DNA of 40,322 nucleotides from Alphaproteobacteria bacterium (GCA_004356335.1 SMXP01000021.1:1-40322); one strand, 5' to 3'. Shown: positions 933 to 40,322, numbered from the stretch's first letter. A program made the numbers and translations. The notes: generated by a model not told the origin, from the sequence alone.

Positions 933-1039
933 TTTAGAGCATTTCCGAGATTAATTGACTCATGAAAATGCTCTAGATTCCCAGTTTGGTCGCGTTTCCG
1001 GACGGAAAACCGGGTCCACTTTTCCTGGAAACGCTCTAG
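933..1039. repeat. Mosaic hairpin repeat locus R1 (module E-like + linker + half of module B, inverted)
   Basis: tagagcatttccgagattaattgactcatgaaaatgctctag (stem tagagcatttc/gaaaatgctcta), then linker attcccagtttggtc, then gcgtttccggacggaaaaccgggtccacttttcctggaaacgctctag. Related copies occur at the other R loci. Confidence 0.85.
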
Positions 1040-1147
1040 TATCCGGGAAAACGCCCCATAACGCCTAATTCCTACGGAAATCAGGCGACTGAGTAGGTAT
1101 GCGGTACAGCCGGCCCCTTGGGGCATCCAGGGCGAGAGACGGGATTC

Positions 1148-2020
1148 ATGACCAGCTCGAACGGTTTCGATGAACGATTTTTCCGCTCTTCGGATGGGTT
1201 GACTTTGTATTACCGGGATTACGCGGCACACAATAGGGCAGCCCCCATTCTGTGCCTTGCGGGTCTAACCCGTAATTCCCGTGACTTTGAAGCGCTGGCC
1301 CCGCATTTGGTCAAAACGGGCCGACGGGTCATCACACTCGATCTGCGGGGTCGAGGTAAATCACAATACGATTCGAATCCCGGTAATTATGTTCTGCCGG
1401 TTTATGCCCAAGATGTCTTGGATTTTCTTGACCATCTCGGCTTGGAAAAGGTCATCCTCATCGGAACCTCTTTGGGCGGATTGGTTGCCCTGAAAGTGGC
1501 CGCCATTAACCTGTCACTGCTTGACGCGATCATCCTCAACGATATCGGACCGGTGGTAAGCCCTGAAGGTCTTGAAAGGATTGGAAGCTATGTAGGCAAC
1601 AGGGGCACTTTCCGGAGTTGGCATGAAACCGCCACCGCCTTGCGCCGTGTCAATGAATGGATCTATCCGGATTTTGACATGGCGGATTGGCTAACGCTGG
1701 CACGGCGTACGTTCCGAGAAACGCCTTCAGGCGAGATCAGCGCAGACTATGACCCCGCCATCGCCATACCTTTCGACAAAGGCCGGGATGTCGATCCGAG
1801 CATCGACCCCTGGACCTTGTTCGAAAAATTAAAGGCCGTGCCCATATTGGTCATTCGCGGTGCCGCGTCGGATATTCTTTCTGCTGAAACCCTAAATAAA
1901 ATGAAACAAATAAAGCCCGACCTGAAAAGCCTGATCGTAGAAAACCGCGGCCACGTTCCTTTGCTGACCGAAGCCCAATGTTTGCAGGCCATAAACAGCT
2001 TTTTGGCGGAGATCCCCTAG
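1148..2020 (+). CDS. alpha/beta-fold hydrolase
   Basis: ORF 1118..2020; the likely start is ATG 1148 (MTSSNGFDERFF..). It has the HG-like oxyanion region PILCLAGLTRNSRDF, the nucleophile elbow GTSLGG and a C-terminal ..NRGHVPLL His motif, which is the typical alpha/beta hydrolase layout. Confidence 0.85.
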   Translation: MTSSNGFDERFFRSSDGLTLYYRDYAAHNRAAPILCLAGLTRNSRDFEALAPHLVKTGRRVITLDLRGRGKSQYDSNPGNYVLPVYAQDVLDFLDHLGLEKVILIGTSLGGLVALKVAAINLSLLDAIILNDIGPVVSPEGLERIGSYVGNRGTFRSWHETATALRRVNEWIYPDFDMADWLTLARRTFRETPSGEISADYDPAIAIPFDKGRDVDPSIDPWTLFEKLKAVPILVIRGAASDILSAETLNKMKQIKPDLKSLIVENRGHVPLLTEAQCLQAINSFLAEIP

Positions 2021-2070
2021 AGCGCATTCGAACCCAAAAACCGCGTACACTTTTTGTGAATGCGCTCCAG
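2017..2070. repeat. Mosaic hairpin repeat locus R2 (module A)
   Basis: ctagagcgcattcgaacccaaaaaccgcgtacactttttgtgaatgcgctccag, with stem gagcgcattc/gaatgcgctc. Near-identical copies at 20860-20908, 34340-34388 and 40041-40089, and an inverted copy at 40220-40268. Confidence 0.9.
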
Positions 2071-2170
2071 GGCTCGGGGGCCGTCTGACGTCTTTGAGAT
2101 AGATCAAGGAGCGCTGGCACCGTTTCCCCTATGAAACCGAGAGGATGTCGAATATCTGTTAGGACTTACC

Positions 2171-2557
2171 ATGAGCGATAAAGTGCCTTATGAGCTTTTA
2201 GGTGGCGAAAAGGGTGTCCGCCGACTATGCGACGCGTTTTACGACGTAGTGGATACATTGCCCGAGGCCAAAACAATCCGGCGGATGCACAAAGAAAATC
2301 TGGACGAAATCCGGCAAAAATTCTTCGAATATATGTCGGCCTGGCTGGGTGGCCCGCCGCTTTATCGCGATAAATATGGCGGCATGTGTATTACCGATCC
2401 TCATCGACCGTTTGCCATTGGGCCACAAGAGAGAGATATGTGGCTTTACTGTATGACTAAAGCGCTCGAACACATCGGCGCATCGGAAGAAGCAAAGAAA
2501 ATGATCGACCGGCCATTGTTCAACGTCGCCGATATGCTTCGCAACCGAGATAACTGA
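2171..2557 (+). CDS. truncated haemoglobin (group II / YjbI-like globin)
   Basis: 128 aa. The pattern Y..LGG...V..L...FY, WLGGPPLY and HRPFAIGPQERDMWLYCM matches the trHbO layout (compare M. tuberculosis GlbO: WGGPRTY, HAPFRI..ERDAWLRCM). Confidence 0.7.
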   Translation: MSDKVPYELLGGEKGVRRLCDAFYDVVDTLPEAKTIRRMHKENLDEIRQKFFEYMSAWLGGPPLYRDKYGGMCITDPHRPFAIGPQERDMWLYCMTKALEHIGASEEAKKMIDRPLFNVADMLRNRDN

Positions 2558-2640
2558 ACAACCATCCCCTCTATTTTCCGTTGCCGGTTAAGCGAACCCG
2601 GCTGCCTTGCGGCAAGCTGATATTGCTGAAACCCATAACA

Positions 2641-2680
2641 AAGCCGCGCCGACCAAATCAGAGGGGGCGCGGCTTTTACA
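2641..2680. terminator. GC-rich hairpin terminator between convergent genes
   Basis: aagccgcgcc (2641-2650) / ggcgcggctt (2666-2675), followed by TTTTAC on the plus strand and TTTGTTA on the minus strand. It lies between the globin (+) and the LLM oxidoreductase (-). Confidence 0.6.
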
Positions 2681-2710
2681 GTGCAATCAGCCATTGGATT
2701 GGTTTGGTTA

Positions 2711-2814
2711 TTAGTGTTTCCAGGAAAAGTGGACACCGGTTTTCCGTCCGGAAACACGACAAATAAATAACTTAGGGTCGGGTTTTGATTCTATCAAAAC
2801 CGGAAAGACCCTAA
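2711..2814. repeat. Mosaic hairpin repeat locus R3 (module B, two hairpins)
   Basis: ttagtgtttccaggaaaagtggacaccggttttccgtccggaaacacgacaaa..ttagggtcgggttttgattctatcaaaaccggaaagaccctaa. Copies at 25152-25257 (inverted), 34595-34699 and 40086-40192. Confidence 0.9.
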
Positions 2815-3821
2815 CTCAAGGCCGGAATAATCTTCTCTCCAATCAGCTTGATGCATTCGGCCGGATCTTCATAGATGCGTAAGGCGATTTCATTGAGCCC
2901 TGCGCTTTGAAAATCTTTTAGTTCCTCAATAATGCGGTCAATGTCTTCCAGACCGCCCCATAAGGTCAGCCCATCAACCAGTTTGTTCACCACCTCGTCC
3001 GGCACCCCTTCGATCACATGGGTGTTAGCGGCATAGGCCCTGAAGAATGCTGCCATATTGTCGCGGACCAATTGGACATCGTCTTCATCAAGGAACGGAC
3101 GGAGATACATGGGAAACAACATGCCCCGCAACACCAACCATCTTCGGGCCTCGCGCCGTGCCGCTTCTTTATCCTTTTTCACATGCCAGGCAAAAAAGTT
3201 ATTGATAGGGAAATCGGCCACCGATTTGCCTTGTTCCTTCAACTTGTCATGAGCCATTTTAATATAATCGCCCACGATAGGCCGCGGGATATCGCTCATC
3301 ATGATCCCATCAGCCACTTCGGCAGAGAATTCCATCACCTTACGTTTGTTGGCGCCCACATATATGGTCGGCGGCGGCTGCGTAACCCAAGTGGGCTCAT
3401 ATTTGCGGACTTCATAAAGGTCGCCTTTGTAACTGAATATATCGCCCTTGGCCGCCATTCTGATAATATCGATACATTCGCGGATCGCCGGCATTCGCTT
3501 TTGCGGTTTGATGCCCATGGCCTCGATGGTACCGCCGCCGCCGCCCACGACGATAATCGCGCGCCCTTTCGATATTTCGTTGAGCGTCAACAACGACGTC
3601 GCCATTTTGATGGGGTGTAATTCAAAGGGACTGATCGCAATGGGGCCCATCTTTATTTTAGATGTTGCCTGGGCGAGGATAGCAAAACTGGCGAATATAT
3701 CCTTTCCGTCGAGCTTGTTGGGCATCCAAACGGCGCCAAACCCAAGGCTTTCCGCCAATTGCCCTAATTCTACGACCTCTTCAGCCGATTTGTCGGGCTC
3801 TAGAATGACATCAATTCTCAT
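2811..3821 (-). CDS. LLM-class (luciferase-like) flavin/F420-dependent oxidoreductase
   Basis: 336 aa. The N-terminus MRIDVIL.., AESLGFGAVWMPNKL and IIVVGGGGG are typical of luciferase-like monooxygenase / methylene-H4MPT-reductase-like proteins. Confidence 0.75.
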   Translation of the reverse strand: MRIDVILEPDKSAEEVVELGQLAESLGFGAVWMPNKLDGKDIFASFAILAQATSKIKMGPIAISPFELHPIKMATSLLTLNEISKGRAIIVVGGGGGTIEAMGIKPQKRMPAIRECIDIIRMAAKGDIFSYKGDLYEVRKYEPTWVTQPPPTIYVGANKRKVMEFSAEVADGIMMSDIPRPIVGDYIKMAHDKLKEQGKSVADFPINNFFAWHVKKDKEAARREARRWLVLRGMLFPMYLRPFLDEDDVQLVRDNMAAFFRAYAANTHVIEGVPDEVVNKLVDGLTLWGGLEDIDRIIEELKDFQSAGLNEIALRIYEDPAECIKLIGEKIIPALS

Positions 3822-4144
3822 CCGCTTATCTCCTTACCGTTAGGTGCGGGTCATAGAATGCCGCAAGGGAGCCACTGGATGCCATGGCCCCCTTGTTCAC
3901 AGACCAAGCCGCGGCGGCGGGGACGGGGACAAGGACGGGATTGGTATAACCCCCTCAAGGAAAATCGGATCAGCACTATTCGTGGAATGGCGCCGCAGCA
4001 AGGCAGCGGATGCATCCTGGCAAAAGTAATCGTATCCTTAAACAGGTTAAGTGAGCACTAAATTCCAATGATCATCCCCCTGTGTGGCTATGCCATCATC
4101 AGGGGGCCATCGGTCGGAATATGTCACCATAAAGGGAGGCGACT

Positions 4145-5113
4145 TTGTCCCAAAAAAAGGATCTTAAATTTGGCGTAGCCATTCCTCAGGTCTTCCTCAA
4201 CGGCAAGGCCGATATGGATTTGGTAAAAAACAGCATACGCACGGCGGAGGATCTCGGCTATCACAGTATGTGGGTCCAAGATCAAGTGCATGGCTACGTG
4301 CCCCTGCAAGAATCCGTCAGCCTGCTGTGTTATGCGGCGGCGGTGAGCTCTAAGGTCAAGCTCGGCGTGTCCGTTATCGTTTTTCCCGTGCGCAATCCGG
4401 TGCACCTTGCGAAAAGCCTCAGCACCCTTGATCAAATGAGCAATGGACGATTGATTTTAGGCATTGGACTTGGACCGCCATCGGGAAGTGAGGATTTTTA
4501 TCTTGCCTTTGGCACCAGTTACAAAGGGCGGGTACGTCGATTCAACGAGAATCTTAAAATCTTGAAATCGCTTTGGACCGAGGACAAAACGAATATAGAG
4601 GGTGAGTGGGCAACCCTTCACAACATTTCAATGGAACCAAAGCCCATCCAAAAACCCCATCCGCCTATTTGGATTGGCGGTCAGCACCCTAATGCGCTAC
4701 GCCGCGCCGTAAAATATGGCGACGGTTTTGCCTCGGCAGGACCCACTTCGACCGAAAACTATAAAAAACACGTGACTCTGGTTCGCCAGTATATGGAAGA
4801 AGAGGGACGCGATCCAGCCACCTTCACCATTTCCAAACGCGTCTATTTGGCTGTGGATGACAACGAAGACCGCGCCAAAAGCCGGCTCGATGATTGGTTC
4901 AACAAACGCTACAGCTGGATGGTGAAACACCGTCCGAAAATGGTCGAGCAAAGCTGTGTTTGGGGCAGCACCGCACGTGTCACCGAAGGTCTTGCCGACA
5001 TCCTGTCCGGCGGCGCCGAAATGCTGATCCTGAATCCCTTGTGGGACTATATGGAACAAATGGAGGCACTGGCATCGGAAGTGATCCCGCAGCTTAGGTC
5101 GAATGTCCCGTAA
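4145..5113 (+). CDS. LLM-class flavin-dependent oxidoreductase
   Basis: 322 aa. TTG start 6 nt after GGAGG (4134-4138). Motifs AEDLGYHSMWVQDQ, GRLILGIGLG and PHPPIWIGG are classic LLM-family features. Divergent from the other LLM gene. Confidence 0.8.
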   Translation: MSQKKDLKFGVAIPQVFLNGKADMDLVKNSIRTAEDLGYHSMWVQDQVHGYVPLQESVSLLCYAAAVSSKVKLGVSVIVFPVRNPVHLAKSLSTLDQMSNGRLILGIGLGPPSGSEDFYLAFGTSYKGRVRRFNENLKILKSLWTEDKTNIEGEWATLHNISMEPKPIQKPHPPIWIGGQHPNALRRAVKYGDGFASAGPTSTENYKKHVTLVRQYMEEEGRDPATFTISKRVYLAVDDNEDRAKSRLDDWFNKRYSWMVKHRPKMVEQSCVWGSTARVTEGLADILSGGAEMLILNPLWDYMEQMEALASEVIPQLRSNVP

Positions 5114-5183
5114 GGAAGGATGCCGGCGGGATCGATATTGCCGCGAGCGAGAATCCGCACGAAGTATCAAAGCTTTCGGTCGC

Positions 5184-5888
5184 TCAACCGCCGGCGCAGC
5201 ATTCAATGGCCTCTGAATAACTCAGCCGTCGACATTCCGGAGAATCAAGCCAGCAACCGGACGACCATAGATAAACCGGCAGGATCTCCGGCTCGGATCC
5301 GTTGTTATGCCAGAAAGAATCAACCGCATACTGATTGCTTGTACCGCGTTCGATAATCGTGGCGGAATTGCTCGGCCAATCGTTAATCAACATGTTTCCG
5401 TAAATGACCGCTTCACCGATATCATGATAGGTCATCAGTCCGTCGTTCCGGAGAAAAGTCAAATAACTCGTCGTATTGGCGGATTCGTCAATACAATCCA
5501 ATTGACCGGCCTTGCCAAGATAAACAGCGCCGCCAATATCGCCCTCAATACCCGCCTTGGGACCTACTATTCTTTCGAGAAGGGCGATCGCAAGGCTAAT
5601 GCGTTTTCGCTCCTCTTCAGCATTTTGCGGACGCTGCACAAAAAGAGTGCGAACCTGAACCCATTCATCGTCGCTGATACTGACATTCGTTATGGACGTG
5701 CAGCCATAGCCATGACAGACATTAAAACTATGCCGCGTGCTATTTGTACCGACACGGTCTCTAAGCACATGTCCTACGGGAGAGCTCGTGCATCCGGCCA
5801 ACAAAACCACAAAGATCAGCGCTAACCAGCACCCCATTGACGAAAATCGAAGGTCCGATGATCCAGGTGAAAATTTACGCAATAACAT
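5184..5888 (-). CDS. Cys-rich lipoprotein of unknown function
   Basis: ORF 5184..5903. I prefer ATG 5888, which has GGAG 9 nt upstream. Lipobox VLLAG|C. Nine further Cys residues include HGYGC and a C-terminal SSGCWLDSPEC..ECCAGG. No family recognised. Confidence 0.6.
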   Translation of the reverse strand: MLLRKFSPGSSDLRFSSMGCWLALIFVVLLAGCTSSPVGHVLRDRVGTNSTRHSFNVCHGYGCTSITNVSISDDEWVQVRTLFVQRPQNAEEERKRISLAIALLERIVGPKAGIEGDIGGAVYLGKAGQLDCIDESANTTSYLTFLRNDGLMTYHDIGEAVIYGNMLINDWPSNSATIIERGTSNQYAVDSFWHNNGSEPEILPVYLWSSGCWLDSPECRRLSYSEAIECCAGG

Positions 5889-6290
5889 TTGTCCGCTCTC
5901 CAAAAGATTTCGCTCGTTCCTTCGCGGCCTGTGTTCAGGTCAAGCTCCCTTGGGCTTTCTCGTTAAGCCAGAGATCAAACGGAAATCCGTGAATAGAACA
6001 GCATTCGCCCATAGGCAGAGCAAGATGTTTATTTGCCGAACGAAAGACCTACATATCCCCACCTGAAACTTAACATCGCTCGCTGGAAGCGTATATATAC
6101 TTTATGCCATATGTCAAAATTCACCAATTAACCAAGCGGCGGCGGCAGGCGTCTCGTCGGCCACCATCCGAGTCGGAGACATCATCCCATTCATAGGGAA
6201 AACTCCGGCAAAAAACGGACCCTGCCCGGGCAATCGGTCCAAAACTCGGCCGGATTTTCGCTCAATCGCCAGTCCGCAGGCGGATCGAAT

Positions 6291-6361
6291 TAGAATGTTT
6301 CCAGGAAAACCGGGTCCACCCCGGCCTTCGCCGGGGCATGCTTTTCCTGAATGCGCTCTAA
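6291..6361. repeat. Mosaic hairpin repeat locus R4 (B1-like variant with inserted GC hairpin)
   Basis: tagaatgtttccaggaaaaccgggtccaccccggccttcgccggggcatgcttttcctgaatgcgctctaa. The inner hairpin ccccggc/gccgggg recurs in R7 (23359-23376). Confidence 0.75.
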
Positions 6362-6447
6362 CGTGCTTAAGCCACCGGGAGACGTAAAACAAGCGGCCGC
6401 CCAATGAAGAGCGGCCGCTTAACAAACAAAACTAAAAGTCAGATCCG

Positions 6448-7218
6448 TTATTCAGCAGCGTAAGGCGGGCTGCTTGTCAAACTGGCTTGATCTCTTTCCG
6501 AAACAAAAAGGCGCTGCACATTGGCCAGGTCTTCCTGCGTGTCCACCTCACCCCAAGTCAGACCTTCAATTGACGCCGCCTGGACGAAACCATCTCTTGC
6601 CATTTTGTCCACAACCATCAGATACCAGGCGTGCACCGCTTCAGGATCTTGCATGGCCTCCGCAATGGCTTGCGCAAAAAGCTGCGGGCCTTCGCCGCGG
6701 AAATACAAAAGGCCAATCGATTCGCCGTCCGTCTCCTCGCGCGACAATTTTTTGCCGACCGCCAAAAGACGCGTCCCATTGAGTTGAACTTTCATATCGT
6801 CATCGTCGTAAGACGACTTGCGATCAATGGTGATCGTGATCGGCGCGAGGGTACTGGAAAGAACACGCCGCGGTATTCTCGGCTCGAATAATGTATCACC
6901 ATTTACCAGTAGAAAATCACTGTCCATTTCATCAATCGCCATCCAACAACTGGCAAGGTTGTCCGATACCTGAAAGAAAGGATTGAAAATTGTCCGGATG
7001 CTGAGATTGGGACTTTGCCAAGGCGCCAAGGTACGCTCAACCGCCTCAGCACCAAACCCCGTGACGACACAAACGTTATTGACGCCGCAGTCATGTAAAA
7101 CCTTTATCTGCCGTTCAAGCATGGTAAGATGGCCGATTGGCAAAAGACACTTTGGTCGGTGTTGAGTCAAAGGAAGAAGTCGTGAACCGCGTCCCGCACT
7201 TAGTATTATAGCTTTCAT
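6448..7218 (-). CDS. LicC/IPCT-like phospho-alcohol cytidylyltransferase (NTP-transferase fold)
   Basis: ORF 6448..7296. The likely start is ATG 7218 (MKAIILSAGRGSRLLPLT..PKCLL), which forms an ATGA overlap with the upstream stop. It has the G-loop LSAGRGSRL, NPFFQVSDNLASCW and WGEVDTQEDL, as in CTP:phosphocholine / inositol-phosphate cytidylyltransferases. Confidence 0.75.
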   Translation of the reverse strand: MKAIILSAGRGSRLLPLTQHRPKCLLPIGHLTMLERQIKVLHDCGVNNVCVVTGFGAEAVERTLAPWQSPNLSIRTIFNPFFQVSDNLASCWMAIDEMDSDFLLVNGDTLFEPRIPRRVLSSTLAPITITIDRKSSYDDDDMKVQLNGTRLLAVGKKLSREETDGESIGLLYFRGEGPQLFAQAIAEAMQDPEAVHAWYLMVVDKMARDGFVQAASIEGLTWGEVDTQEDLANVQRLFVSERDQASLTSSPPYAAE

Positions 7219-7964: not shown

Positions 7965-7983
7965 CAGCCTGAAATTATCTCGT

Positions 7984-9195: not shown

Positions 9196-9485
9196 TGCCC
9201 TCTTGCCTCCAAATTAAGTCTTCGATTAAACACCGCTTGCCCGCGCTTTGAGGCGGATTTGCGACCATATCGACAAGGTCGATTTCTTGGGGGGTACAAA
9301 TAGCATTATTGAAACTTTCACCAAAGCTTACTACCCCTTGTGAGGTGGCCGGCGCGCCGCGATCCTGGCTGCCGGACTCACCTGGTCGCTAGAGCGAAAT
9401 ATGCTGATGTCTTGCGCTATCCGGGGCTTTCGGGGCATCACACAGGCCACGAATTTTTGTTTGAATCGAAAGGTATTTCAAAACC

Positions 9486-9932: not shown

Positions 9933-9940
9933 ACGATTAT

Positions 9941-12162: not shown

Positions 12163-12164
12163 TG

Positions 12165-14137: not shown

Positions 14138-14307
14138 GTTGACGTCCTAAGATATGCGGCTTTGTGGCCCGAAAATAGACGGTAAAACGTCGCATTCGAG
14201 GGCCGACTGCCCGGGGATTCGGGCCGGCACGCCCATTTCTGCGTACCCGGCCCTATTTGAATCAATTCGGCGGACAATTGCAACCGATCGACCAAAACCC
14301 GCAAAAG

Positions 14308-14346
14308 CTAGAGTGTTTCCAAGAAAACCGGGTTCGTTCATCCTAG
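14308..14346. repeat. Mosaic hairpin repeat locus R5 (truncated B1-like module)
   Basis: ctagagtgtttccaagaaaaccgggttcgttcatcctag shares its first 25 nt or so with module B and R4. Confidence 0.6.
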
Positions 14347-14351
14347 CCGCT

Positions 14352-14948: not shown

Positions 14949-15000
14949 GCCCCCCTGAAGCATATGAAACAGCAAACATTTACCCACTTAGCCCAACTAT

Positions 15001-15021
15001 TTGCGATAATGGATATCGCAA
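15001..15021. promoter_or_regulatory. Perfect 8-bp inverted repeat in the divergent DUF2141 / lptF promoter region (candidate operator)
   Basis: TTGCGATA-atgga-TATCGCAA, located 56 nt upstream of the lptF ATG (15077). Confidence 0.35.
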
Positions 15022-20752: not shown

Positions 20753-20802
20753 CTTTTCTCTATCCTTCATCTTTTGGTTCTCATTCGGATATACGCTATC
20801 AA

Positions 20803-20947
20803 CTAGAGCACGTTCACAAAAGATGGAATCACTAACGTGCTCTAGGTCTTTGTTTTGTCGCGCATTCGAACCCAAAAACCGCGTACACTTTTTGTGAATG
20901 CGCTCTAGACCACGTTCTTCGATTCTATGAATTGTGAACGTGGTCTA
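20803..20947. repeat. Mosaic hairpin repeat locus R6 (modules C + A + D)
   Basis: C: ctagagcacgttcacaaaagatggaatcactaacgtgctctag (20803-20845). Linker gtctttgttttgtc. A: 20860-20908. D: ctagaccacgttcttcgattctatgaattgtgaacgtggtcta (20905-20947). It is intercistronic between the acyl ligase and the ACP. Confidence 0.9.
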
Positions 20948-20994
20948 TTGTAATATATCCATCCGGCCGGCTTATAGCAGCTTGTTATGATTTC

Positions 20995-23332: not shown

Positions 23333-23462
23333 TAGAGCGCATTGACAAAAAGCATGTCCCGGCGAAGGCCGGGGTGTGCGCGGTTTTTTGGGTTCGAACG
23401 GGCGACAGAACAAAGACTTTTAGAGCGTTTTCGCGATTCTGTTAAGTTCGAAAACGCTCTAG
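23333..23462. repeat. Mosaic hairpin repeat locus R7 (inverted module A with inserted GC hairpin + inverted module E)
   Basis: tagagcgcattgacaaaaagcatg[tcccggcgaaggccgggg]tgtgcgcggttttttgggttcgaacgggcgac, then tagagcgttttcgcgattctgttaagttcgaaaacgctctag. Confidence 0.8.
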
Positions 23463-25151: not shown

Positions 25152-25257
25152 TTAGGGTCTTTCCGGTTTTGATAGAATCAAAACCTGACCCTAAGTTATC
25201 GTTTTGTCGTGTTTCCGGACGGAAAACCGGTATCCACTTTTCCTGGAAACACTCTAG
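25152..25257. repeat. Mosaic hairpin repeat locus R8 (module B, inverted)
   Basis: ttagggtctttccggttttgatagaatcaaaacctgaccctaa..gtgtttccggacggaaaaccggtatccacttttcctggaaacactctag. It sits between the candidate Pho box and the pstS start. Confidence 0.9.
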
Positions 25258-26172: not shown

Positions 26173-26317
26173 AACCACAGACACCTAAGCGGACGCAAAC
26201 TCACTGAGTTAGTTTTGGGCGGGGGGATCAACCGGTAGCGGCTGCCTTGCCGCCTCGCTCCGCTAGGCACTGGGACTGCGGCAGTTTTCGAGGCAGAACG
26301 CAGAACATAGAATAATC

Positions 26318-28348: not shown

Positions 28349-28367
28349 TTACGGGAACAATGCAAAG

Positions 28368-30058: not shown

Positions 30059-30076
30059 GAGTTCAAGGAATCGATA

Positions 30077-30910: not shown

Positions 30911-31049
30911 TGTCACACAGGATCATCACGTCCGGTCGGTGTTTTTCGCGCAGGTCAAGGGAATCAATAAATCCCGGAAAAGGCCTGGAAATCCGCCCGG
31001 AGCTGTGGGATGTTCTCCCAAATAGAGCAGATAAAAGTACCATTATAGT

Positions 31050-31772
31050 ATGATTAGAAAACGTTGGGTCGCCCATATCCGTTGGGCGTTATTACTTTTT
31101 GGGGCGATGAACTTGGCCGCTTGCGCGAATTTGAGGGGCGTGGTGGGCGCAGATTGCGCCCCGCCGCCGGCCGAGGCCGCTGCGGACGAAACAACGGAAG
31201 CCCCTTTGGAGAAAGAACAGCCGCTGGCCGAGGCCGCCTCTGCGGAAACAACGGAAGCCCCTTTGGAGGATGCGATGGTTGGAGAACAGCCGCCAAATCC
31301 GACACCCGAAACGAACCATAGGTTGGACGTATCGCGGCTGCAAACCGCCGATGGCCGGCTGATTCTCGGAAGCGTCGAAACCATACGACTTGATCCGTTG
31401 GGTATCATATATGAAGCGCGGATCGACACCGGCGCCGAAACCTCATCGATTGATGCGCAAAACATCGTGCTTTTCGAGCGGGACGGTAAAAGGTGGGCAC
31501 GATTTGAGCTACAGGATGCCGGTCAAAATGACCCGGTAGTGGTGGAAAAACGTATTAGACGATTTGTCTTGGTTAGCCAAATAAATAATCTGGAGCTGGA
31601 CCGCCGCCCCGTGGTTCGAATGCGTTTGCAGGTGGGTGCAACAATTGAAACCGTCGATATCAGTTTGACGAACCGTTCCCGCATGTCCTTCCCTATCTTA
31701 TTGGGGCGGGAATTTCTGCTCGACCGAGCCGTCGTTGATGTTTCCAGAAGTCATATTCAGGACTTACAATGA
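31050..31772 (+). CDS. DUF785 / putative ATP-dependent zinc protease family (retropepsin-like aspartic protease) lipoprotein
   Basis: Lipobox NLAA|C, then an acidic repeat linker, then a catalytic-type ARIDTGAETSSIDA (D-T-G) and a C-terminal ILLGREFL. This is the family usually found next to RimK-like ligases. Confidence 0.75.
   Translation: MIRKRWVAHIRWALLLFGAMNLAACANLRGVVGADCAPPPAEAAADETTEAPLEKEQPLAEAASAETTEAPLEDAMVGEQPPNPTPETNHRLDVSRLQTADGRLILGSVETIRLDPLGIIYEARIDTGAETSSIDAQNIVLFERDGKRWARFELQDAGQNDPVVVEKRIRRFVLVSQINNLELDRRPVVRMRLQVGATIETVDISLTNRSRMSFPILLGREFLLDRAVVDVSRSHIQDLQ
31170..31283 (+). repeat. In-frame 57-nt tandem duplication inside the protease linker
   Basis: gccgaggccgctgcggacgaaacaacggaagcccctttggag (31170-31211) recurs at 31227-31268. 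It encodes AEAAADETTEAPLEKEQPL / AEAASAETTEAPLEDAMVGEQP. Confidence 0.85.
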
Positions 31773-33298: not shown

Positions 33299-34248
33299 TG
33301 TTCAATTTCATAAAACGTCTGCGCAAGAGAGGAATCCTGAGCATGAATCAACGGAATGTCCGGTACATAGGACAATACAATGACCGTCGCCTCTACCCGC
33401 TGGTCGATGACAAGCTGAAAACAAAGCTCTTGGCTACCGAGCATAACGTCAACGTGCCCGGCCTCATTGGAACAATTCAATATTACCACGAAACCCGACT
33501 CATTGATCGCATCATAGGGCAGCGCAGCGGTTTTGTTATCAAGCCGGCCAGAGGCTCAGGTGGAAAAGGAATTCTTGTGATTGTCGGCAGCAAAGGTGAG
33601 GCGTATTTAAGATCTAACGGCTCGGTTGTGACCCTGCCCGATATCCGGCGCCATTTATCGAATATTTTGAGTGGCCTATACAGTCTTGGCGGCAGTCAAG
33701 ATGTCGCCATCATCGAGGAATTGATTCATTCCGATCCACGGCTGGAACCTTACACCCATGAGGGTGTGCCCGATATTCGGGTCATCGTTTTCAAAGGCTT
33801 TCCCGTTATGGCCATGATACGCTTGGCCACCCGCCAATCGGCCGGCCGGGCCAACTTGCATCAGGGGGCCGTGGGTGTGGGTCTTGATTTAGCGGCGGGC
33901 CGGGCTTTGGGCGGTGTGCAATTCAATGCGCCCATAGAGATCCACCCCGACACCGGAGCAACTTTAAAAAATCTCTTTATTCCGAAATGGGAAGAACTGC
34001 TGGAGCTGTCAGCCAAATGTTTCGACATGTCCAATTTCGGTTATTTGGGGTGCGATTTCGTGCTCGATGAGTCTCACGGGCCTTTGCTGCTCGAATTGAA
34101 CGCGCGCCCGGGTCTTGCCATCCAAATCGCCAATCAAAGCGGATTGTTGCTTGCCCTCAATCACATCGAACAGGGTCGCGCGCCCAAAAATCTCTCCCCT
34201 AAACAAAGAGCATCTTACGCAATCGACAAATTGGCGAAACTATCCTGA
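33298..34248 (+). CDS. alpha-L-glutamate-ligase-like (RimK-related) ATP-grasp protein
   Basis: The start ATG 33298 overlaps the upstream TGA (TGATG). It has GILSMNQRNVRYIGQYNDRRLYPLVDDKLKTK and the ATP-grasp core FVIKPARGSGGKGI..DIRVIVF..ANLHQGAVGVG..GCDFVLD..GPLLLELNARPG. Confidence 0.8.
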   Translation: MFNFIKRLRKRGILSMNQRNVRYIGQYNDRRLYPLVDDKLKTKLLATEHNVNVPGLIGTIQYYHETRLIDRIIGQRSGFVIKPARGSGGKGILVIVGSKGEAYLRSNGSVVTLPDIRRHLSNILSGLYSLGGSQDVAIIEELIHSDPRLEPYTHEGVPDIRVIVFKGFPVMAMIRLATRQSAGRANLHQGAVGVGLDLAAGRALGGVQFNAPIEIHPDTGATLKNLFIPKWEELLELSAKCFDMSNFGYLGCDFVLDESHGPLLLELNARPGLAIQIANQSGLLLALNHIEQGRAPKNLSPKQRASYAIDKLAKLS

Positions 34249-34282
34249 TTCATTTGCCTCGCATGCCGTCATTTTGAACATT

Positions 34283-34490
34283 CTAGACCACGTTCACAAT
34301 TCATTGAATCGGGAACGCGGTCTAGATTTCCTATTGGTCGCGCATTCGAACCCAAAAACCGCGTACACTTTTTGTGAATGCGCTCTAGAGCATTTCCGAA
34401 CTTAACAGAATCGCGGAAACGCTCTAAGTTCTTGTTTGGTCGCGCCGTTTGCGCGCAAAACCGCACACACTTTTGCGCACGGCGCTCTAG
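34283..34490. repeat. Mosaic hairpin repeat locus R9a (modules D + A + E + A-like variant)
   Basis: Four consecutive hairpins bounded by CTAG and joined by linkers atttcctattggtc / gttcttgtttggtc. The last unit, gcgccgtttgcgcgcaaaaccgcacacacttttgcgcacggcgctctag, is a diverged module A. Confidence 0.9.
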
Positions 34491-34594
34491 ACACCTGTAA
34501 GAAGAAACGATAACGCCGTATCCCCGAGAAAATCATCTGCAACCGCCGCGCCAATTCTATGCCAGACAAGTATTGCTCTAACGGAAATAGGCCT

Positions 34595-34699
34595 TAGAGT
34601 GTTTCCAGGAAAAGTGGCCCCCGGTTTTCCGTCCGGAAACACGACAAAACAATAACTTATGGTCAGGTTTTGATTCCATCAAAACCGGAAAGACCCTAG
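34595..34699. repeat. Mosaic hairpin repeat locus R9b (module B)
   Basis: tagagtgtttccaggaaaagtggcccccggttttccgtccggaaacacgacaaaacaataacttatggtcaggttttgattccatcaaaaccggaaagaccctag. Confidence 0.9.
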
Positions 34700-34738
34700 A
34701 ATGGCCGTTTCGGTACGACCTCAACCATAAGAGAAACG

Positions 34739-35200
34739 ATGATTGAAATCGAAGAGATCACGACCAACAAGGCTGGGATTTGCCGCACGATTCTGGAAGC
34801 TCTTCCAGACCGGTTCGGCAATCAAAGAGTTGTCGAGCTCATTGTTAAAGAGGCTCCATTGCTATCTATGCTTGGCGCGCGTGACGGCGACGACTATGTG
34901 GGTATGATGACTGTTAAGCGGCAAACACCACAGACAATTGAAATTAGGGCCTTGGGTGTGATGCCCGATCGCCATCGGCAGGGGATCGGCCGGGCCTTGA
35001 TCCAAGAAGTGGAAAGCTACGCCATACAACAAGGGGCAGTCCTGCTTTCATTGAAGACCGTTGGCCCGTCAGATCCCAATCCGATCTACCAAAACACTCG
35101 TGCCTTTTACCATGCTCTCGGATTTGTCCAAGTTGAAGAACTGCCTCTCTGGGGGCCCGATGCAGCCTGCTTGTTGATGGTTAAGTCGTTAAAGCCGTGA
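34739..35200 (+). CDS. GNAT-family N-acetyltransferase
   Basis: 153 aa with the acetyl-CoA-binding motif RHRQGIGRALI (Q/RxxGxG/A) and a C-terminal YHALGF. Confidence 0.8.
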   Translation: MIEIEEITTNKAGICRTILEALPDRFGNQRVVELIVKEAPLLSMLGARDGDDYVGMMTVKRQTPQTIEIRALGVMPDRHRQGIGRALIQEVESYAIQQGAVLLSLKTVGPSDPNPIYQNTRAFYHALGFVQVEELPLWGPDAACLLMVKSLKP

Positions 35201-35301
35201 TCGTTATATCGGCGTTCGGCTCTCGAACTTTTCCACCGTTTACCGAATGGATGCCGCACACGACTATATGATGGCCAGGACGAAAAAGGATCGCCGCCGC
35301 A

Positions 35302-35949
35302 ATGAGCGCCACCATAGCCGAAGATATCTTCAGAAACCTGGCCGACCAAATCTTATCCGGACGCATAGCGCCCGGCCAAAGGATGGAGGAGCAAGTCGTC
35401 GCAAATGAATTCGGCGTTTCCCGAACGCCGGTGCGGGATGCCTTGAGGCAATTGGCGGCGACGGGTCTTGTGGAGATTAAACCCAATAGGGGAGTGACCG
35501 TTGTCGACCCCCCTATTCATCAGCTCAACGACATGTTCGAGGCCCTTGGAGAGCTTGAGGCGCTGTGCGCAAGACTAAGCGCACAACGAATGAGTGACAT
35601 CGAACGCAAGAAACTTGACATGATCATGCAAGAATGTCGAACGGCGATGCGCGGCAAGAATCGTAAGAAGTACGCAGATGCGAACGAGCAGTTTCACAAA
35701 TTGATCTATCAGGGCTCCCACAATCAAACTCTAGAAGAAATCGCCGTCGCTCTTTGGCAACGGCTAGAACCTTTCCGCAGATCCAGCTTTTTCGAAGTGC
35801 GCGGTCGCATGCAAGCATCGCTCAAAGAGCATGAAGGTATTTCAAAGGCGATTCTCGCCAAAAACGCCGAGCTGGCCCACACCATGATGCGGGATCACGT
35901 AACAAATTCAAACATGAATGCCGTTGAGCACTTAACGTCTCAAAAATGA
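35302..35949 (+). CDS. GntR-family transcriptional regulator (FadR/FCD subfamily)
   Basis: The N-terminal wHTH is ..RMEEQVVANEFGVSRTPVRDALRQLAATGLVEIKPNRG. The C-terminal domain is all-helical and FCD-like, with H..I/L motifs. Confidence 0.85.
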   Translation: MSATIAEDIFRNLADQILSGRIAPGQRMEEQVVANEFGVSRTPVRDALRQLAATGLVEIKPNRGVTVVDPPIHQLNDMFEALGELEALCARLSAQRMSDIERKKLDMIMQECRTAMRGKNRKKYADANEQFHKLIYQGSHNQTLEEIAVALWQRLEPFRRSSFFEVRGRMQASLKEHEGISKAILAKNAELAHTMMRDHVTNSNMNAVEHLTSQK

Positions 35950-35951
35950 TG

Positions 35952-36171
35952 CTAGAGCACGTTGACAAAAGATGGAATCCCTAACGTGCTCTAAGTCCTT
36001 GTTTGGTCGCGCATTCGGACGGAAAACCGGGTCCACTTTTCCTGAATGCGCTCTACGTCTTTGTTTGGTCGCGCATTCGGACGGAAAACCGGTGCCCGTT
36101 CATCCCTTCAATCGATCCACCGGATCGATTGACCTTGGCAAGGACGGTCTTCACTCCTGAATGCGCTCTAG
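35952..36171. repeat. Mosaic hairpin repeat locus R10 (module C + two B1-related units in tandem)
   Basis: Three hairpin units separated by the conserved junction gctcta(a/c)-GTC(C/T)TTGTTTGGTC-gcgcattcggacggaaaaccgg (35995-36030 and 36057-36092). It fills the entire gap between the GntR and PanE-like stops. Confidence 0.9.
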
Positions 36172-36172
36172 A

Positions 36173-37153
36173 TCAGGCATTATAGGCGCCGGCCAATTTA
36201 CCTTCCAGCTTGACAAGCGCTAGCACCGTATCAATGGTCGGTGTTTGGATCTTGTTTAGGCGACCTAACTCTTGCACCACACCGAGCAATGCATCGACCT
36301 CCATAATCCGACCCTTCTCCAGATCCTGCAACATGGAAGTTTTGTGATCGCCCACCTCGAGTGCACCGGCAATCCTTTTGTCCAGGTCGATCTTAAAGGT
36401 AACACCAAGGCTCTCGGCAATCAGTTTCGCCTCCAGCATCATCGCCCTGATAATCGTGAGCGCGCCCGGATCTTCGATTATCTGGCGAATTGTTCCGCCA
36501 GTGAGCGCACTTACGGGATTGAAACTGAGATTGCCCCAAAGCTTCACCCAAATTTCATCTCTAATGTTCGTACGCACCCGTGCTTTAAAACCGGCATTCG
36601 ACAGCATATCCGAAAGGATCAGCAAACGGGTCGATTTTGATCGATCGGGCTCTCCAATAGAAAACCGATTGCTATAAATATGTTTTATCACGCCGGGTTC
36701 GACGATCTCAGCCGCCGGATAGACGACACATCCGATCGCCCGTTCCGGGCCGATAAACTTCCATTGACTGTTCCCCGGATCAACCGACGCGATTCGTCTG
36801 CCGTCATAAGGCCCGCCATGTTGATAAAAGTACCACCACGGTATGCCGTTTTGGGCCGTAACAACAGCGGTGTCCCGACCGAGAAGCGGCGTCATGCGCT
36901 GTGCCACACTATGCGCCGACGGCGCTTTTACAGCGACGATAACATAGTCTTGCGGACCCAAATCATTAGGATCATCGGTACAGGGCATTTTTTCTATGTG
37001 TTCTTCGCCACCGATCAACAGCTTCAAGCCGTTCTTTTGAATAGCGCGCAGATGATCTCCGCGGGCGATACAGGTAACGTCGACGCCGGCTCGCTTGAGC
37101 TCAACGGCCAAATAACCGCCGATGGCACCGGCACCGTAAATACAAACCTTCAT
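36173..37153 (-). CDS. ketopantoate-reductase-family (PanE/ApbA) oxidoreductase; candidate oxalyl-CoA reductase
   Basis: 326 aa with the N-terminal Rossmann motif MKVCIYGAGAIGG and the PanE-like KTSMLQDLEKGR. ATGA overlap with the upstream ligase (37150-37153). Confidence 0.75.
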   Translation of the reverse strand: MKVCIYGAGAIGGYLAVELKRAGVDVTCIARGDHLRAIQKNGLKLLIGGEEHIEKMPCTDDPNDLGPQDYVIVAVKAPSAHSVAQRMTPLLGRDTAVVTAQNGIPWWYFYQHGGPYDGRRIASVDPGNSQWKFIGPERAIGCVVYPAAEIVEPGVIKHIYSNRFSIGEPDRSKSTRLLILSDMLSNAGFKARVRTNIRDEIWVKLWGNLSFNPVSALTGGTIRQIIEDPGALTIIRAMMLEAKLIAESLGVTFKIDLDKRIAGALEVGDHKTSMLQDLEKGRIMEVDALLGVVQELGRLNKIQTPTIDTVLALVKLEGKLAGAYNA

Positions 37154-38700
37154 GGCAACTTTGCTTTGCCCGGCTCAGTGAGGCCGAATTGTTTGTGTAG
37201 TCCAAGGCGCACCAGTTTTCCGGTTGCCCCCGTGGGAATTTCATCAACGAATAAGATCGTTCGGGGAATTTTGAAGGAGGCTAACTTCGACGACGCAAAA
37301 TCTTTAACTTCCTGCTTGTCCAGCGTCTGACCCTCTTTCAGCACGATTGCCGCACCTACTTCCTCGCCCAACTTTGGATCCGGTATGGCAAAAGTGACAA
37401 CTTGTGCAATGGCGGGGTGCTCCAAAAGGACCTCATCCACTTCGCGCGGCGATATCTTTTCGCCGCCGCGGTTGATGATCTCTTTCAATCGGCCGGTGAT
37501 ACGCAAATAGCCATCAGCGTCCAATTGTCCTTGATCGCCTGTACGGAACCATCCATGGCTGAAGGCCGCTTCATTGCCCTTGGGATTGGCCTCGTAACCA
37601 TGAGTGACGTTGGGCCCTCGAACAACGATTTCACCTATACTTTCATGCGGTAACAGGTTTCCTTCATTGTCCATGATGGCGATTTCCGGCCCGGCCGGCA
37701 ATCCCACCGATCCGGCCTTACGCGCACGTGGCGGCAATGGGTTCGACGACATTTGATGCGCCGCCTCGGTCATTCCATAGGATTCGATGACCGGACACCT
37801 GAATGTCTTCTCGAGTTCGGTCATAACGTTGGGCGGCAGCGAAGACGAGGACGATCGGATGAATCGCAAGTTTGATTTGGCCGCTATGTGGCGATTTCTT
37901 TCGGCACGAGCAAGAATGGCCTGATGCATGGTTGGAACCGCCGTGTACCAAGTGGGTTGCGCATCATCCAGCCAGCCAAAGAATCTCATCGCATTAAAAC
38001 CCGACGTACAATAAACGTTAGCCCCCACCGCCAAGCTTGCAAGCACCGCTGCCATCAGACCGTGAATATGAAAAAGCGGCATGATGTTGAGACATCGATC
38101 ATCCGCGGTCAATAATAAGAATTTAGAAACATGTTCCGCGGAGGCGCAGACATTGGCCTGGCTCAATGGCACTATCTTTGGTCGAGATGTTGTCCCCGAC
38201 GTGTGCAGAACGAGCGCGATATCCCCGGTCATTGCGGGCCCACCTGAGGACGCCGGCACTAGACCATGTTTTGGTGTCGTTAGGTCGAACATCCCGGCGG
38301 CGGCATTCGATTGAACCGCTATTGGGAAAATCGGAATTCCCAGTTTCTGCGCCACGTTAACGGCAGGAGATTGATCTCCCGCCATCACCACCAGTGCTTT
38401 CACATTAAGATCCAAAAGATGGAATCTGAACTCGTCGGTGCGATAATTCGGGTTCAAGGGAGCGGCAGTGGCACCTGCCGCAATGGTGATAAAAGCCGAC
38501 GCCATGACAGGACCATTCGGCAAGATAATGGCAACACGATCGTTCCGACCAATACCGGCCATATTGAGCGTGTCGATGACCGACTTGGTAAGTTCTAAAA
38601 GATCGCCGAAGGTAAGCGATGTTTGGCCTGGCGCGCTGATAGCCGCGCCGGATATATGATTTTGACTCAATAGTTCGAAAATCGTCGGGCCGACACTCAA
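37150..38700 (-). CDS. AMP-forming acyl-activating enzyme resembling oxalate--CoA ligase (AAE3/Pcs60 type)
   Basis: ORF 37150..38775. I prefer TTG 38700, which has GGAG 7 nt upstream. Motifs LHTSGTTSRPK, WYTAVPTMHQAIL, LRFIRSSSSSLPP, MTEAAHQMSSNPLP, VRGPNVTHGYE, GWFRTGD and GRLKEIINRGGEKISPREVD closely track Arabidopsis AAE3 as I remember it. Confidence 0.7.
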   Translation of the reverse strand: MSVGPTIFELLSQNHISGAAISAPGQTSLTFGDLLELTKSVIDTLNMAGIGRNDRVAIILPNGPVMASAFITIAAGATAAPLNPNYRTDEFRFHLLDLNVKALVVMAGDQSPAVNVAQKLGIPIFPIAVQSNAAAGMFDLTTPKHGLVPASSGGPAMTGDIALVLHTSGTTSRPKIVPLSQANVCASAEHVSKFLLLTADDRCLNIMPLFHIHGLMAAVLASLAVGANVYCTSGFNAMRFFGWLDDAQPTWYTAVPTMHQAILARAERNRHIAAKSNLRFIRSSSSSLPPNVMTELEKTFRCPVIESYGMTEAAHQMSSNPLPPRARKAGSVGLPAGPEIAIMDNEGNLLPHESIGEIVVRGPNVTHGYEANPKGNEAAFSHGWFRTGDQGQLDADGYLRITGRLKEIINRGGEKISPREVDEVLLEHPAIAQVVTFAIPDPKLGEEVGAAIVLKEGQTLDKQEVKDFASSKLASFKIPRTILFVDEIPTGATGKLVRLGLHKQFGLTEPGKAKLP

Positions 38701-38740
38701 CTGGGATCTCCTGTTACGGATTTTCGACGACGGGGCAATA

Positions 38741-38770
38741 TTGTATACATTATAGAAATTTCGTATACTT
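38741..38770. promoter_or_regulatory. Two GTATAC-core palindromes in the divergent ligase/formamidase promoter (candidate GntR-type operators)
   Basis: tTGTATACAt (core 38742-38749) and cGTATACt (38763-38768), with centres about 20 bp apart. They fit the FadR-subfamily GT-n-AC type consensus. Confidence 0.4.
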
Positions 38771-38861
38771 GTCAATTGAGCGCGACAAAGTAGGGCGACC
38801 GGAAGAGAAAATTGGCTTACTTTGTCCTCACCTATCTGGTCACATTGTCAGAGGGACCTTC

Positions 38862-39956
38862 ATGACGCTCATGCATCATCACGGCGAACCGGCCAAAGAC
38901 ACCTCCCCCACAGCGCTTCATCGCCTTAACGCGACCGCCCAAACCGTCCATTGGGGCTATTTCGATGCCGCACTGGCGCCGGTGCTTCGGGTATCGAGCG
39001 GCGACCTGATAGAGGCCCAAGCGGTCACCCACCATGCAGGCGATGCGCCCGACCTGATGATGGACAAGGCGATCGAGACACTCTACCGCGAGATTCCCGA
39101 GGCCGATCGTAATCCCGGCGTCCATATCATGACCGGCCCCATTCATATTGAAGGTGCCAAGCCCGGCGACATGCTGGAAGTGCGATATCTACGGATGACA
39201 CCGCGATTCAATTACGGCTCTAATCTGGCGGCCAATTGGGGCTATCTCTACAAGGAATTTGACGAAAAGGAACGGGTCACTATTTATAAGATCGACCCCA
39301 GCGCCAATCATGCCCAAGCAGTCTACGCGTATGATTTCCCCGGAAAATATGAGATTCCCGGTACGATTACCCATTGTCCGGTTTGTGATCGTGAATCAGC
39401 GCTTAAGGGTATTCGCGTTCCCGTCCGCCCTCATTTGGGAACGGCAGGCGTTGCACCTAATGTCACGGGCCGGATCAGCACGATTCCCCCAGGAGCTCAC
39501 GGCGGCAATATTGACAATTGGCGGATCGGAGCGGGAGCGACAATGTATTACCCGATCGCGGTCGACGGCGCACTTTTTTCAATCGGCGACCCGCATATCT
39601 CCCAAGGCGATGGCGAGCTCAGCGGCACGGCGATCGAAGCATCACTGAACGTATTGTTTCAGGTGGTTCTAAGGAAGGACTTTGAGTTTCCCTCACCGCT
39701 TCTCGAGACACCGAATTGGTGGATCGTGCATGGCTTTGACGAGGACCTTAACGTGGCCATGCGCAACGCGTCGTTAGACATGTTGACTCTACTGACCGAG
39801 CATCAGGGGTTGTCGCGCAACGATTCCTACTCGCTTATAAGCGTCGCCGCCGATTTCGCCGTTACCCAGGTAGTCGACGGCCGGCAGGGGATTCACGTGC
39901 GGATCCCAAGAGACATTTTTCCCAGTCGAGGCGTGGTGCAAGATGTCGATTTATAA
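38862..39956 (+). CDS. acetamidase/formamidase-family amidohydrolase
   Basis: ORF 38769..39956. The likely start is ATG 38862 (MTLMHHHGEP), with AGAGGGA upstream. Motifs TGPIHIEGAKPGDMLEV, HGGNIDNW and FSIGDPHISQGDGELSGTAIE are typical of FmdA/AmdA. Confidence 0.8.
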   Translation: MTLMHHHGEPAKDTSPTALHRLNATAQTVHWGYFDAALAPVLRVSSGDLIEAQAVTHHAGDAPDLMMDKAIETLYREIPEADRNPGVHIMTGPIHIEGAKPGDMLEVRYLRMTPRFNYGSNLAANWGYLYKEFDEKERVTIYKIDPSANHAQAVYAYDFPGKYEIPGTITHCPVCDRESALKGIRVPVRPHLGTAGVAPNVTGRISTIPPGAHGGNIDNWRIGAGATMYYPIAVDGALFSIGDPHISQGDGELSGTAIEASLNVLFQVVLRKDFEFPSPLLETPNWWIVHGFDEDLNVAMRNASLDMLTLLTEHQGLSRNDSYSLISVAADFAVTQVVDGRQGIHVRIPRDIFPSRGVVQDVDL

Positions 39957-39983
39957 TCTGACGATACGTTATCAGCGGAGCAA

Positions 39984-40322
39984 CTAGAGCACGTTCACAA
40001 AAGATGGAATCACTAACGTGCTCTAGGTCTTTATTTTGTCGCGCATTCGAACCCAAAAACCGCGGACACTTTTTGTGAATGCGCTCTAGAGTGTTTCCAG
40101 GAAAAGTGGCCACCGGTTTTCCGTCCGGAAACACGACAAAACAACAACTTAGGGTCAGGTTTGATTCCATCAAAACCGGAAAGACCCTAAACACAGCACC
40201 TTCCAAATACCCGAATGATCAGAGCGCATTCACAAAAAGTGTATGCGGTTTTTGGGTTCGAATGCGCGACCACTAAAGAATCTGGACCACGTTCTTCGAT
40301 TCTATGATTTATGAACGTGGTC
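39984..40322. repeat. Mosaic hairpin repeat locus R11 (modules C + A + B, spacer, inverted A, D; runs off the right edge)
   Basis: C 39984-40026, A 40041-40089, B 40086-40192, inverted A 40220-40268, and D from 40283 to the window end. The C+A part is nearly identical to R6. Confidence 0.9.

Follow-up and report, generated by a model that had tools for sequence, protein, structure and literature searches.

Hairpin repeats in the window

We analysed a 40,322-nucleotide (nt) stretch of DNA from an alphaproteobacterium (Alphaproteobacteria bacterium, GCA_004356335.1 SMXP01000021.1:1-40322), which is called the window below and in which intergenic spacers, among them those beside a hydrolase gene, a luciferase-like gene, a porin gene and pstS, carry a family of hairpin repeats. 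An earlier note on this DNA had described 11 intergenic loci assembled from at least five hairpin modules, A to E. A repeat scan recovered every family named there, and the sequences were read at all 11 loci. With an nhmmer profile of the whole repeat unit as the basis for copy calls, we found 12 full and 5 partial copies at these 11 intergenic loci, amounting to 1,580 nt or 3.9 % of the window, and all 17 copies lay outside called open reading frames (ORFs) apart from their terminal TAG, much as the note had stated. The pattern of the second hairpin had nine matches in the window and none in 100 shuffles.

The modules did not prove to be independent. Alignment of the copies revealed one two-hairpin unit, whose hairpin 2 corresponds to A and whose hairpin-1 variants correspond to C, D and E, while B represents one whole unit in the opposite orientation. 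The unit is laid out as a TA, a 100-nt core and a second TA, and the core runs from GAGC through hairpin 1 (about 43 nt, with GANTC at its tip) to GCTC, then through a T-rich linker, GTCTTTGTTTTGTC, into hairpin 2 (about 48 nt), which again ends in GCTC. The copies and sites in the window are listed here.

934-1039, + strand: full unit with an E-type hairpin 1, its core at 937-1036 between the TAs; polymorphic (nhmmer, sequence and metagenome contigs)
2018-2069, + strand: solo hairpin 2 (module A); the hydrolase gene at 1118-2020 has its first TAG as stop codon, and its right TA has decayed to CA
2713-2814, - strand: full unit of B type; its terminal TAG (2813-2811) serves the luciferase-like gene at 2811-3821 as stop codon; missing in run X5
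6291-6360, strand unassigned: hairpin-2-like palindrome with a nested GC hairpin at 6319-6336 (partial copy)
about 14306-14345, - strand: TA-flanked fragment (partial copy), a single hairpin-2 arm followed by GTTCATCC
20803-20908, + strand: full unit, C hairpin 1 with A hairpin 2; 98 % identity with 39984-40089
20905-20947, - strand: solo hairpin 1 of D type (partial copy), with CTAG 20905-20908 common to the neighbouring unit
23333-23462, - strand: full unit with a GC hairpin of about 21 nt in the hairpin-2 loop, giving it the look of a bidirectional terminator; in a divergent intergenic region
25152-25257, + strand: full unit of B type between the porin gene and pstS; also in the 98.7 % identical contig L127
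26263-26266, no strand: CTAG target that is empty in the window, in the spacer from pstS to the phoU-like gene; filled in some strains
34283-34490, + strand: head-to-tail pair of full units, 34283-34388 and 34385-34490, with one CTAG in common
34595-34699, - strand: full unit of B type, inverted relative to its neighbours
35952-36171, + strand: full unit (35952-36055), then a second linker and hairpin 2 (partial, 36049-36171)
39984-40190, both strands: two full units tail to tail (39984-40089 on +, 40086-40190 on -) with one CTAG in common
40221-40322, - strand: full unit, D hairpin 1 with A hairpin 2, cut off at the window edge; TA decayed to CA on the hairpin-2 side

The unit proved to be uniform in length. 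The core had a median of 100 nt (interquartile range 99-100) over 42 units from many genomes, and the full units of the window measured 102-106 nt in nhmmer coordinates, or 130 nt in the copy with the nested insert. We found that the hairpin types are not freely shuffled and are linked into whole-unit subfamilies: C+A occurred twice, D+A twice and B+B four times, and E occurred with various partners. Identity was 88-98 % inside subfamilies and 53-87 % across them, so that the 90-100 percent identity given for the copies in the earlier note stood within subfamilies and failed between them. Furthermore, GANTC was present in the tip of hairpin 1, at about unit position 23, in 12 of 12 full units of the window and in 29 of the 49 units among the matches listed in other genomes, as against 7 % of random 48-mers.

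Conservation of the two-hairpin fold

A class-wide alignment of 55 units was used to examine conservation. The consensus fold consisted of two hairpins with 89 % of cells paired, compared with 76 % in shuffles, and none of 500 shuffles reached this value. Slid controls gave 34-51 %. Compensatory double changes were found in 16 of the 18 pairs; both hairpins are maintained by compensatory changes. Several letters that had not been set by the search pattern were at least 90 % conserved as well, namely TAG.G in the initial CTAGAGC, three letters of GAATC at the hairpin-1 tip (G, the second A and C), the C and A of the GCTCTA that closes hairpin 1, and the three T's of the GTTT linker.

Insertion at Y-TA-R and strain polymorphism

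Comparison with metagenome contigs revealed three sites at which a unit is present in some strains and absent from others. A Joint Genome Institute (JGI) metagenome contig, L127, was 98.7 % identical to the window over 5.2 kb and had one more unit, in the spacer that separates pstS from the phoU-like gene. The empty site of the window (26263-26266) reads ...CAGTGC-CTAG-CGGAGC..., and the filled site of L127 reads ...CAGTGC-C-TA-[GAGC...100 nt...GCTC]-TA-G-CGGAGC.... Among Logan contigs the same site was empty in X3, held the L127 unit in X1 and X5, and in X2 held another filling with a different hairpin 2 on one side. At the second site, the unit at 934-1039 was cleanly missing in X1, X3 and X5, where single contigs join 934 to 1037 (skipping 935-1036, 102 nt) and leave T-TA-G. 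At the third, the unit at 2713-2814 was cleanly missing in X5, as seen in one contiguous 988-nt record with a 100-nt skip; the luciferase-like gene there ends in ...AGC-TAA, compared with ...AGT-TAG in the window, the G being supplied by the element. These three filled/empty comparisons showed insertion at Y-TA-R with duplication of the TA. All of them involve strains that are 97-99 % identical, and the family is therefore active now or was so very recently.

The same rule emerged from the termini of 42 units. The left end was YTAG in 40 of 42 and the right end CTAR in 38 of 42, and the two 4-mers were equal in only 15 of 42, which points to TA as the duplicated part and Y-TA-R as the target. 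Reconstructed targets were CTAG in 15 cases, CTAA in 11 and TTAG in 9. A 4-bp duplication of CTAG was also considered and was ruled out, as 27 of the 42 units have unequal 4-mers on their left and right.

Two properties of the copies follow from the target rule. With G as the first letter of the core and C as its last, each copy restores YTAG on its left and CTAR on its right, and since these are again CTAG-like words, new copies land there. The 'mosaics' thus arise by stacking of new copies on old, and a single shared CTAG was found between all adjoining units of the window (20905-20908, 34385-34388 and 40086-40089). In addition, a stop codon, TAA or TAG, that takes up a copy is left as TAG, and copies can therefore abut genes. 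In the fetched loci (1.1 Mb), 43 of 163 element ends coincided exactly with the stop codon of a called gene, and the window has two such cases (2018-2020 and 2811-2813); this coincidence is due to the target rule together with the terminal G.

Dispersal within the population and across the class

In marine-sediment and subsurface metagenomes the window had a depth of 5-43x. The summed contig depth of repeat-bearing bins, which is not a copy number, was about 30-660x the unique depth, with a similar ratio across samples. Hundreds of different contigs started or ended exactly at the unit borders 20803/20908, 23420/23462 and 25153/25257, and their flanks had no common consensus. The depth and the diverse flanks fit hundreds of copies. 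The earlier note had proposed a dispersed, non-autonomous and still spreading family, and the repeat depth, the many flanks and the three polymorphic copies bear this out. Local duplication, which the note had named as the alternative origin, was ruled out by the depth, the many different flanks and the homologues in other genomes.

Related units were found throughout the class. The B-type unit matched 297 plasmids of Rhizobium, Sinorhizobium, Agrobacterium, Ensifer, Martelella, Nitratireductor, Shinella and Phyllobacterium; these matches may be RIME1, a '108-bp element with two large palindromes'. The A-type hairpin 2 matched Asticcacaulis plasmids, and the copies in Asticcacaulis (Caulobacteraceae) were 80-84 % identical across the linker and hairpin 2. 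A scan with the hairpin-2 pattern, using one genome per species, gave at least 120 loci. Among the matches listed were loci in Hyphomicrobiales (Rhizobium, Mesorhizobium, Bradyrhizobium, Bosea, Methylobacterium, Methylocystis, Hyphomicrobium, Blastochloris and Brucella/Ochrobactrum), Caulobacterales (Asticcacaulis), Rhodobacterales (Roseovarius and Nioella), Sphingomonadales (Sphingobium, Novosphingobium and Pontixanthobacter) and Rhodospirillales (a Rhodospirillum sp.); 49 of these listed hits were complete bipartite units, and the listed matches included no Caulobacter copy.

Two observations concern the edges of the family. Some relatives, such as those in L002 (an Agrobacterium vitis plasmid) and L001 (an S. 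meliloti pSymB-type plasmid), keep the linker and hairpin 2 together with an unrelated hairpin 1 or none, and the conserved core of the superfamily is therefore the linker plus hairpin 2. A typical unit, closely like the subtype at 34385-34490 of the window, was also present at 4992-5103 of L076, a contig binned as 'uncultured Acidimicrobiia', which is probably a mis-binned alphaproteobacterial contig.

Mobilisation of the repeats

To describe the ends of the units, the first 14 nt were compared with the reverse complement of the last 14. They agreed at 8.6 of 14 positions within a unit and at 7.1 of 14 between units (p = 4e-9), and at 11 of 14 in the main subfamily, so that the ends are imperfectly inverted-repeat-like. 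Such likeness within a unit is expected if one transposase binds both ends. No transposase was found among the 10 window proteins that were scanned against Pfam.

We interpret the loci as copies of a single small mobile element that is non-coding and belongs to the type, found across the class Alphaproteobacteria, represented by the CIR (Caulobacter CcrM-associated intergenic repeats), RIME (Rhizobium-specific intergenic mosaic elements) and Bru-RS repeats, and give this reading a probability of about 0.82. [quoted passage not shown] The element enters the TA of Y-TA-R words, most often CTAG, with duplication of the TA, and would be moved in trans by a TA-duplicating DDE transposase, which may be IS630/Tc1-mariner-like or IS5/IS427-like such as IS711. 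IS711, of the IS5 family, duplicates TA in YTAR and prefers Bru-RS (PMC2266754), and IS630-family elements are described as duplicating TA, with a preference of IS630 for CTAG, where PMC2170065 cites Tenzen and Ohtsubo 1991. The hairpins might exist largely because each arm is an end-like sequence, and effects on transcripts, such as hairpins at 3' ends, would be a by-product and not the cause of the pattern.

Several points weigh against this interpretation. The hairpin-2 pattern drove the genome scan, which makes the conservation of those columns partly circular, and the class-wide conservation of the hairpin-2 core and of GANTC exceeds what a transposase needs and hints at constraint at the level of the host. 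A filled/empty pair on its own may also fit an element that has CTAG at its own end and inserts beside CTAG with nothing duplicated, and the empty alleles could also stem from precise excision. No insertion sequence (IS)-sized element with the same ends was found in the 1.1 Mb of fetched loci, nor was a transposase with matching ends found there. The terminal inverted repeats are imperfect, and the published table (PMC2229807) gives none for CIR. Finally, the assignment to CIR is one made by comparison with the published description of these repeats.

A bolder version of the mobile-element interpretation would give the conserved features a part in movement. CIR-type repeats would then be currently active TA-duplicating MITEs that control their own mobilisation, with the tip GANTC as a CcrM methylation switch coupling mobilisation or transposase binding to replication-fork passage, and the G...C ends as an adaptation that makes stop codons safe landing sites. 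Dam sites couple IS10 and IS50 to replication-fork passage in this way. We consider this version doubtful; if true, it would explain how an element of about 100 nt has persisted across at least five alphaproteobacterial orders.

Transcript role and rival explanations

The explanation that comes closest to a rival holds that the repeat is first of all a cis element selected by the host, acting as a 3'-end hairpin or terminator, as a stabiliser of operon mRNA or as a GANTC site read by CcrM/GcrA, with mobility coming second. The compensatory changes that keep both hairpins across five orders would suit such a role, as would the conservation of GANTC at the hairpin-1 tip far above chance, the T-rich tract after hairpin 1, the resemblance of the GC-hairpin-insert variant to a bidirectional terminator, and the polymorphic insertion immediately behind pstS, a place in which a stabilising hairpin would be plausible. 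With rough gene calls (GC3-filtered ORFs), which underlie all tests of setting and orientation, units were found in convergent, tandem and divergent spacers 31, 40 and 12 times, against a background of 146, 407 and 142, an enrichment in convergent intergenic regions (31/83 versus 146/695). The orientation of the units is harder to reconcile with a host-selected role. Tandem units were co-oriented in 18 cases and anti-oriented in 22, convergent ones in 8 and 23, and among full units stop codons lay at the hairpin-1 end in 7 cases and at the hairpin-2 end in 11; there is no robust orientation bias relative to the adjoining genes, and orientation looks random. Further settings of the copies are a divergent promoter region (23333-23462) and the interior of operons (ACP-ligase, and pstS-phoU in other strains), and their presence varies between near-identical strains.

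A scan with consensus terminators and promoters gave no excess at the units, with 24 terminator-like structures found and 23.5 expected, and the only variant flagged by the terminator scan was the one with the GC hairpin between the A- and T-runs of hairpin 2. The ratio of repeat depth to gene depth was about the same in RNA-labelled and DNA runs and gave no sign of stable RNAs, in contig-level, amplified 'metatranscriptomic WGA' data whose contigs break at repeats and are uninformative for 3' ends and stable RNAs. A terminator or mRNA-stabiliser role is thus unproven, and we consider it improbable that host selection in cis came first.

The Rfam search bore on a different possibility. At gathering thresholds the units had no match. 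With E-value thresholds, the Brucella small RNA (sRNA) candidate BASRCI27 (RF02600) matched over its full model length on the reverse strand of the units with 40.9 bits (E = 1e-7), below the gathering score of 59.8, and its model consensus is visibly a repeat of the same build as the window units, which indicates a related architecture and not membership. As an observation on the same strand, in 53 of 61 copies the reverse complement of the unit, as RNA, was the more stable of the two strands, by about 4.8 kcal/mol. The counts of G-U versus A-C and the forward and reverse folding energies gave opposite hints as to the strand, and the folding excess is a single property of the family consensus and not 61 independent events.

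The earlier note had likened the repeats to REP/BIME elements and to REPINs moved by a RAYT transposase, and this analogy fared poorly. Its appeal lies in palindromic, intergenic copies that occur in both orientations and in clustered mosaics, and in the conserved CTAG that flanks the hairpins and loosely resembles GTAG, the head of REPs. The unit, however, measures about 104 nt and consists of two different hairpins side by side, and not of a 20-40-nt GC-rich palindrome or an inverted REP pair. In addition, its ends are inverted-repeat-like, and empty sites have one TA in YTAR where filled sites have a TA on each side, whereas IS200/IS605-type enzymes make no target duplication. We therefore regard a REPIN-like origin as very unlikely. 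Least likely is a multicopy family of sRNA genes like BASRCI27, as the sub-threshold full-model match and the more stable folding of the reverse strand are set against a score under the gathering threshold, a folding asymmetry that counts once, the lack of any promoter or terminator tied to the units in our scans, and copies that stand in either orientation, lie directly against stop codons and vary in presence among strains.

Other features of the window

Additional observations were made beside the copies. The extra nested GC hairpins that the earlier note had placed at 6319-6336 and 23359-23376 were confirmed in the repeat scan. The loop of the second hairpin 2 at 36049-36171 holds an insert of about 60 nt (36098-36158), which starts with GTTCATCC and has its own palindrome, CAATCGATCC...GGATCGATTG; the same GTTCATCC junction (14335-14343) directly follows the fragment at 14308-14334, and further copies of the insert are present in metagenome contigs. 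This insert is apparently another small repeat which, like the GC hairpin, nests within the loops of hairpin 2. The palindrome at 6291-6360 lies in a 257-nt segment (6133-6389) delimited by the two copies of an 8-nt direct repeat, CAAGCGGC, near 6133 and 6390. This segment was missing in 4 of 4 metagenome strains examined, in which contigs join 6132 to 6390, and it is either an insertion in the window lineage or a microhomology deletion in the other strains. A 12-nt insertion, TTTTTTTGACCG, was present behind 14354 in the X1, X3 and X5 strains, beside the stop of the DUF2141 gene; it is a small indel polymorphism in a T-run. Two 49-nt direct repeats, 57 nt apart and 88 % identical (31163-31268), lie within the ORF at 31050-31772; they have the look of a tandem repeat in coding sequence and have no relation to the hairpin family.

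One spacer also differed in gene content. In a relative of about 78 % identity, L131, the spacer between the acyl ligase gene and the ACP gene contains a gene (568-1521) for a 317-aa reductase of the NAD-dependent epimerase/dehydratase family (Pfam PF01370, E = 2e-29). The counterpart of this spacer in the window (20753-20994) comprises 232 nt and is occupied by one unit and the solo hairpin 1, and tblastn found no homologue of the reductase anywhere in the window. The gene is relevant to the question of the ketoreductase missing from the sphingolipid cluster.

Comparison with known systems

The earlier note had not recognised the family and had stated that a match to an already described repeat would change its interpretation. 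We found the family to match the described CIR and to be related to Brucella and rhizobial repeats (Bru-RS and RIME), so that this condition applies. CIR1-CIR4 were named by Chen and Shapiro (2003), as reported in PMC2229807, PMC3184786 and PMC10969869. In the accounts of PMC2229807 and PMC10969869, CIR are about 110 bp long, abundant and highly conserved among Alphaproteobacteria, and contain two long inverted repeats that form two arms with a linker, one arm having GANTC in or at its terminal loop; these accounts also give them TA termini, describe them as never intragenic and leave their mobility mechanism open, and the table of PMC2229807 records no terminal inverted repeats and enters '?' for the target duplication. 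The features compared, namely a size of about 110 bp, two arms with a linker, the GANTC tip, a strictly intergenic position and TA termini, were all found in the window units, and conservation between alphaproteobacterial species is common to both. The window family differs in showing weakly inverted-repeat-like ends and duplication of the TA at Y-TA-R.

Other alphaproteobacterial repeats are close as well. According to the summary in PMC10800456, the palindromic repeats Bru-RS1 and Bru-RS2 (Halling and Bricker 1994) measure 103 and 106 bp in Brucella. Like the window units they are intergenic palindromes of 103-106 bp, and they are a hot spot for IS711, which follows the same TA-in-YTAR target rule (PMC2266754). 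Units of the same build as those of the window were found in loci of Brucella pecoris, Brucella cytisi and Ochrobactrum. The two families differ in sequence, the Brucella Rfam consensus having TAAAGC ends and a CCAAAG/CTTTGG inner stem where the window family has TAGAGC and GGAAAA/TTTTCC. The RIMEs, Sm-repeats and AB/C palindromes of Sinorhizobium meliloti are intergenic mosaic repeats with conserved sequence and structure (PMC2573895), and RIME1 (Osteras et al. 1995) resembles the window family as a rhizobial intergenic mosaic, the B type being the one found on the 297 rhizobial plasmids. By their descriptions, RIMEs and Sm-repeats are probably the same as the window repeat or sister families of it.

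More distant systems share its behaviour. RUP of Streptococcus pneumoniae and Correia/NEMIS of Neisseria are likewise non-coding elements of about 100-150 bp that are flanked by TA, duplicate TA and form hairpins in transcripts, and they are regarded as being moved in trans, RUP by IS630-Spn1 (PMC2229807). They consist of one long hairpin formed from two ends, whereas the window family has two arms, a linker and a conserved methylation site. REP/BIME/REPIN-RAYT systems also consist of intergenic palindromes that cluster at gene ends in both orientations, but differ in size, architecture, target duplication and end structure.

These comparisons have practical consequences. Units of about 104 nt account for most of the long intergenic spacers in the window and should be masked before searches for sRNAs, promoters or terminators; the Rfam Brucella 'sRNA' model BASRCI27 itself appears to be built around such a repeat. 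The proposal of an IS630-like or IS711-like DDE transposase provides a concrete, testable model of mobilisation. In summary, the kind of element has long been known, and in that respect the finding is solid but unsurprising. Published reviews leave the mobility of CIR open, and what is added here, from three natural filled/empty pairs in marine sediment, is duplication of the TA at Y-TA-R, regeneration of stop codons and a presence/absence polymorphism in natural populations that reflects ongoing activity.

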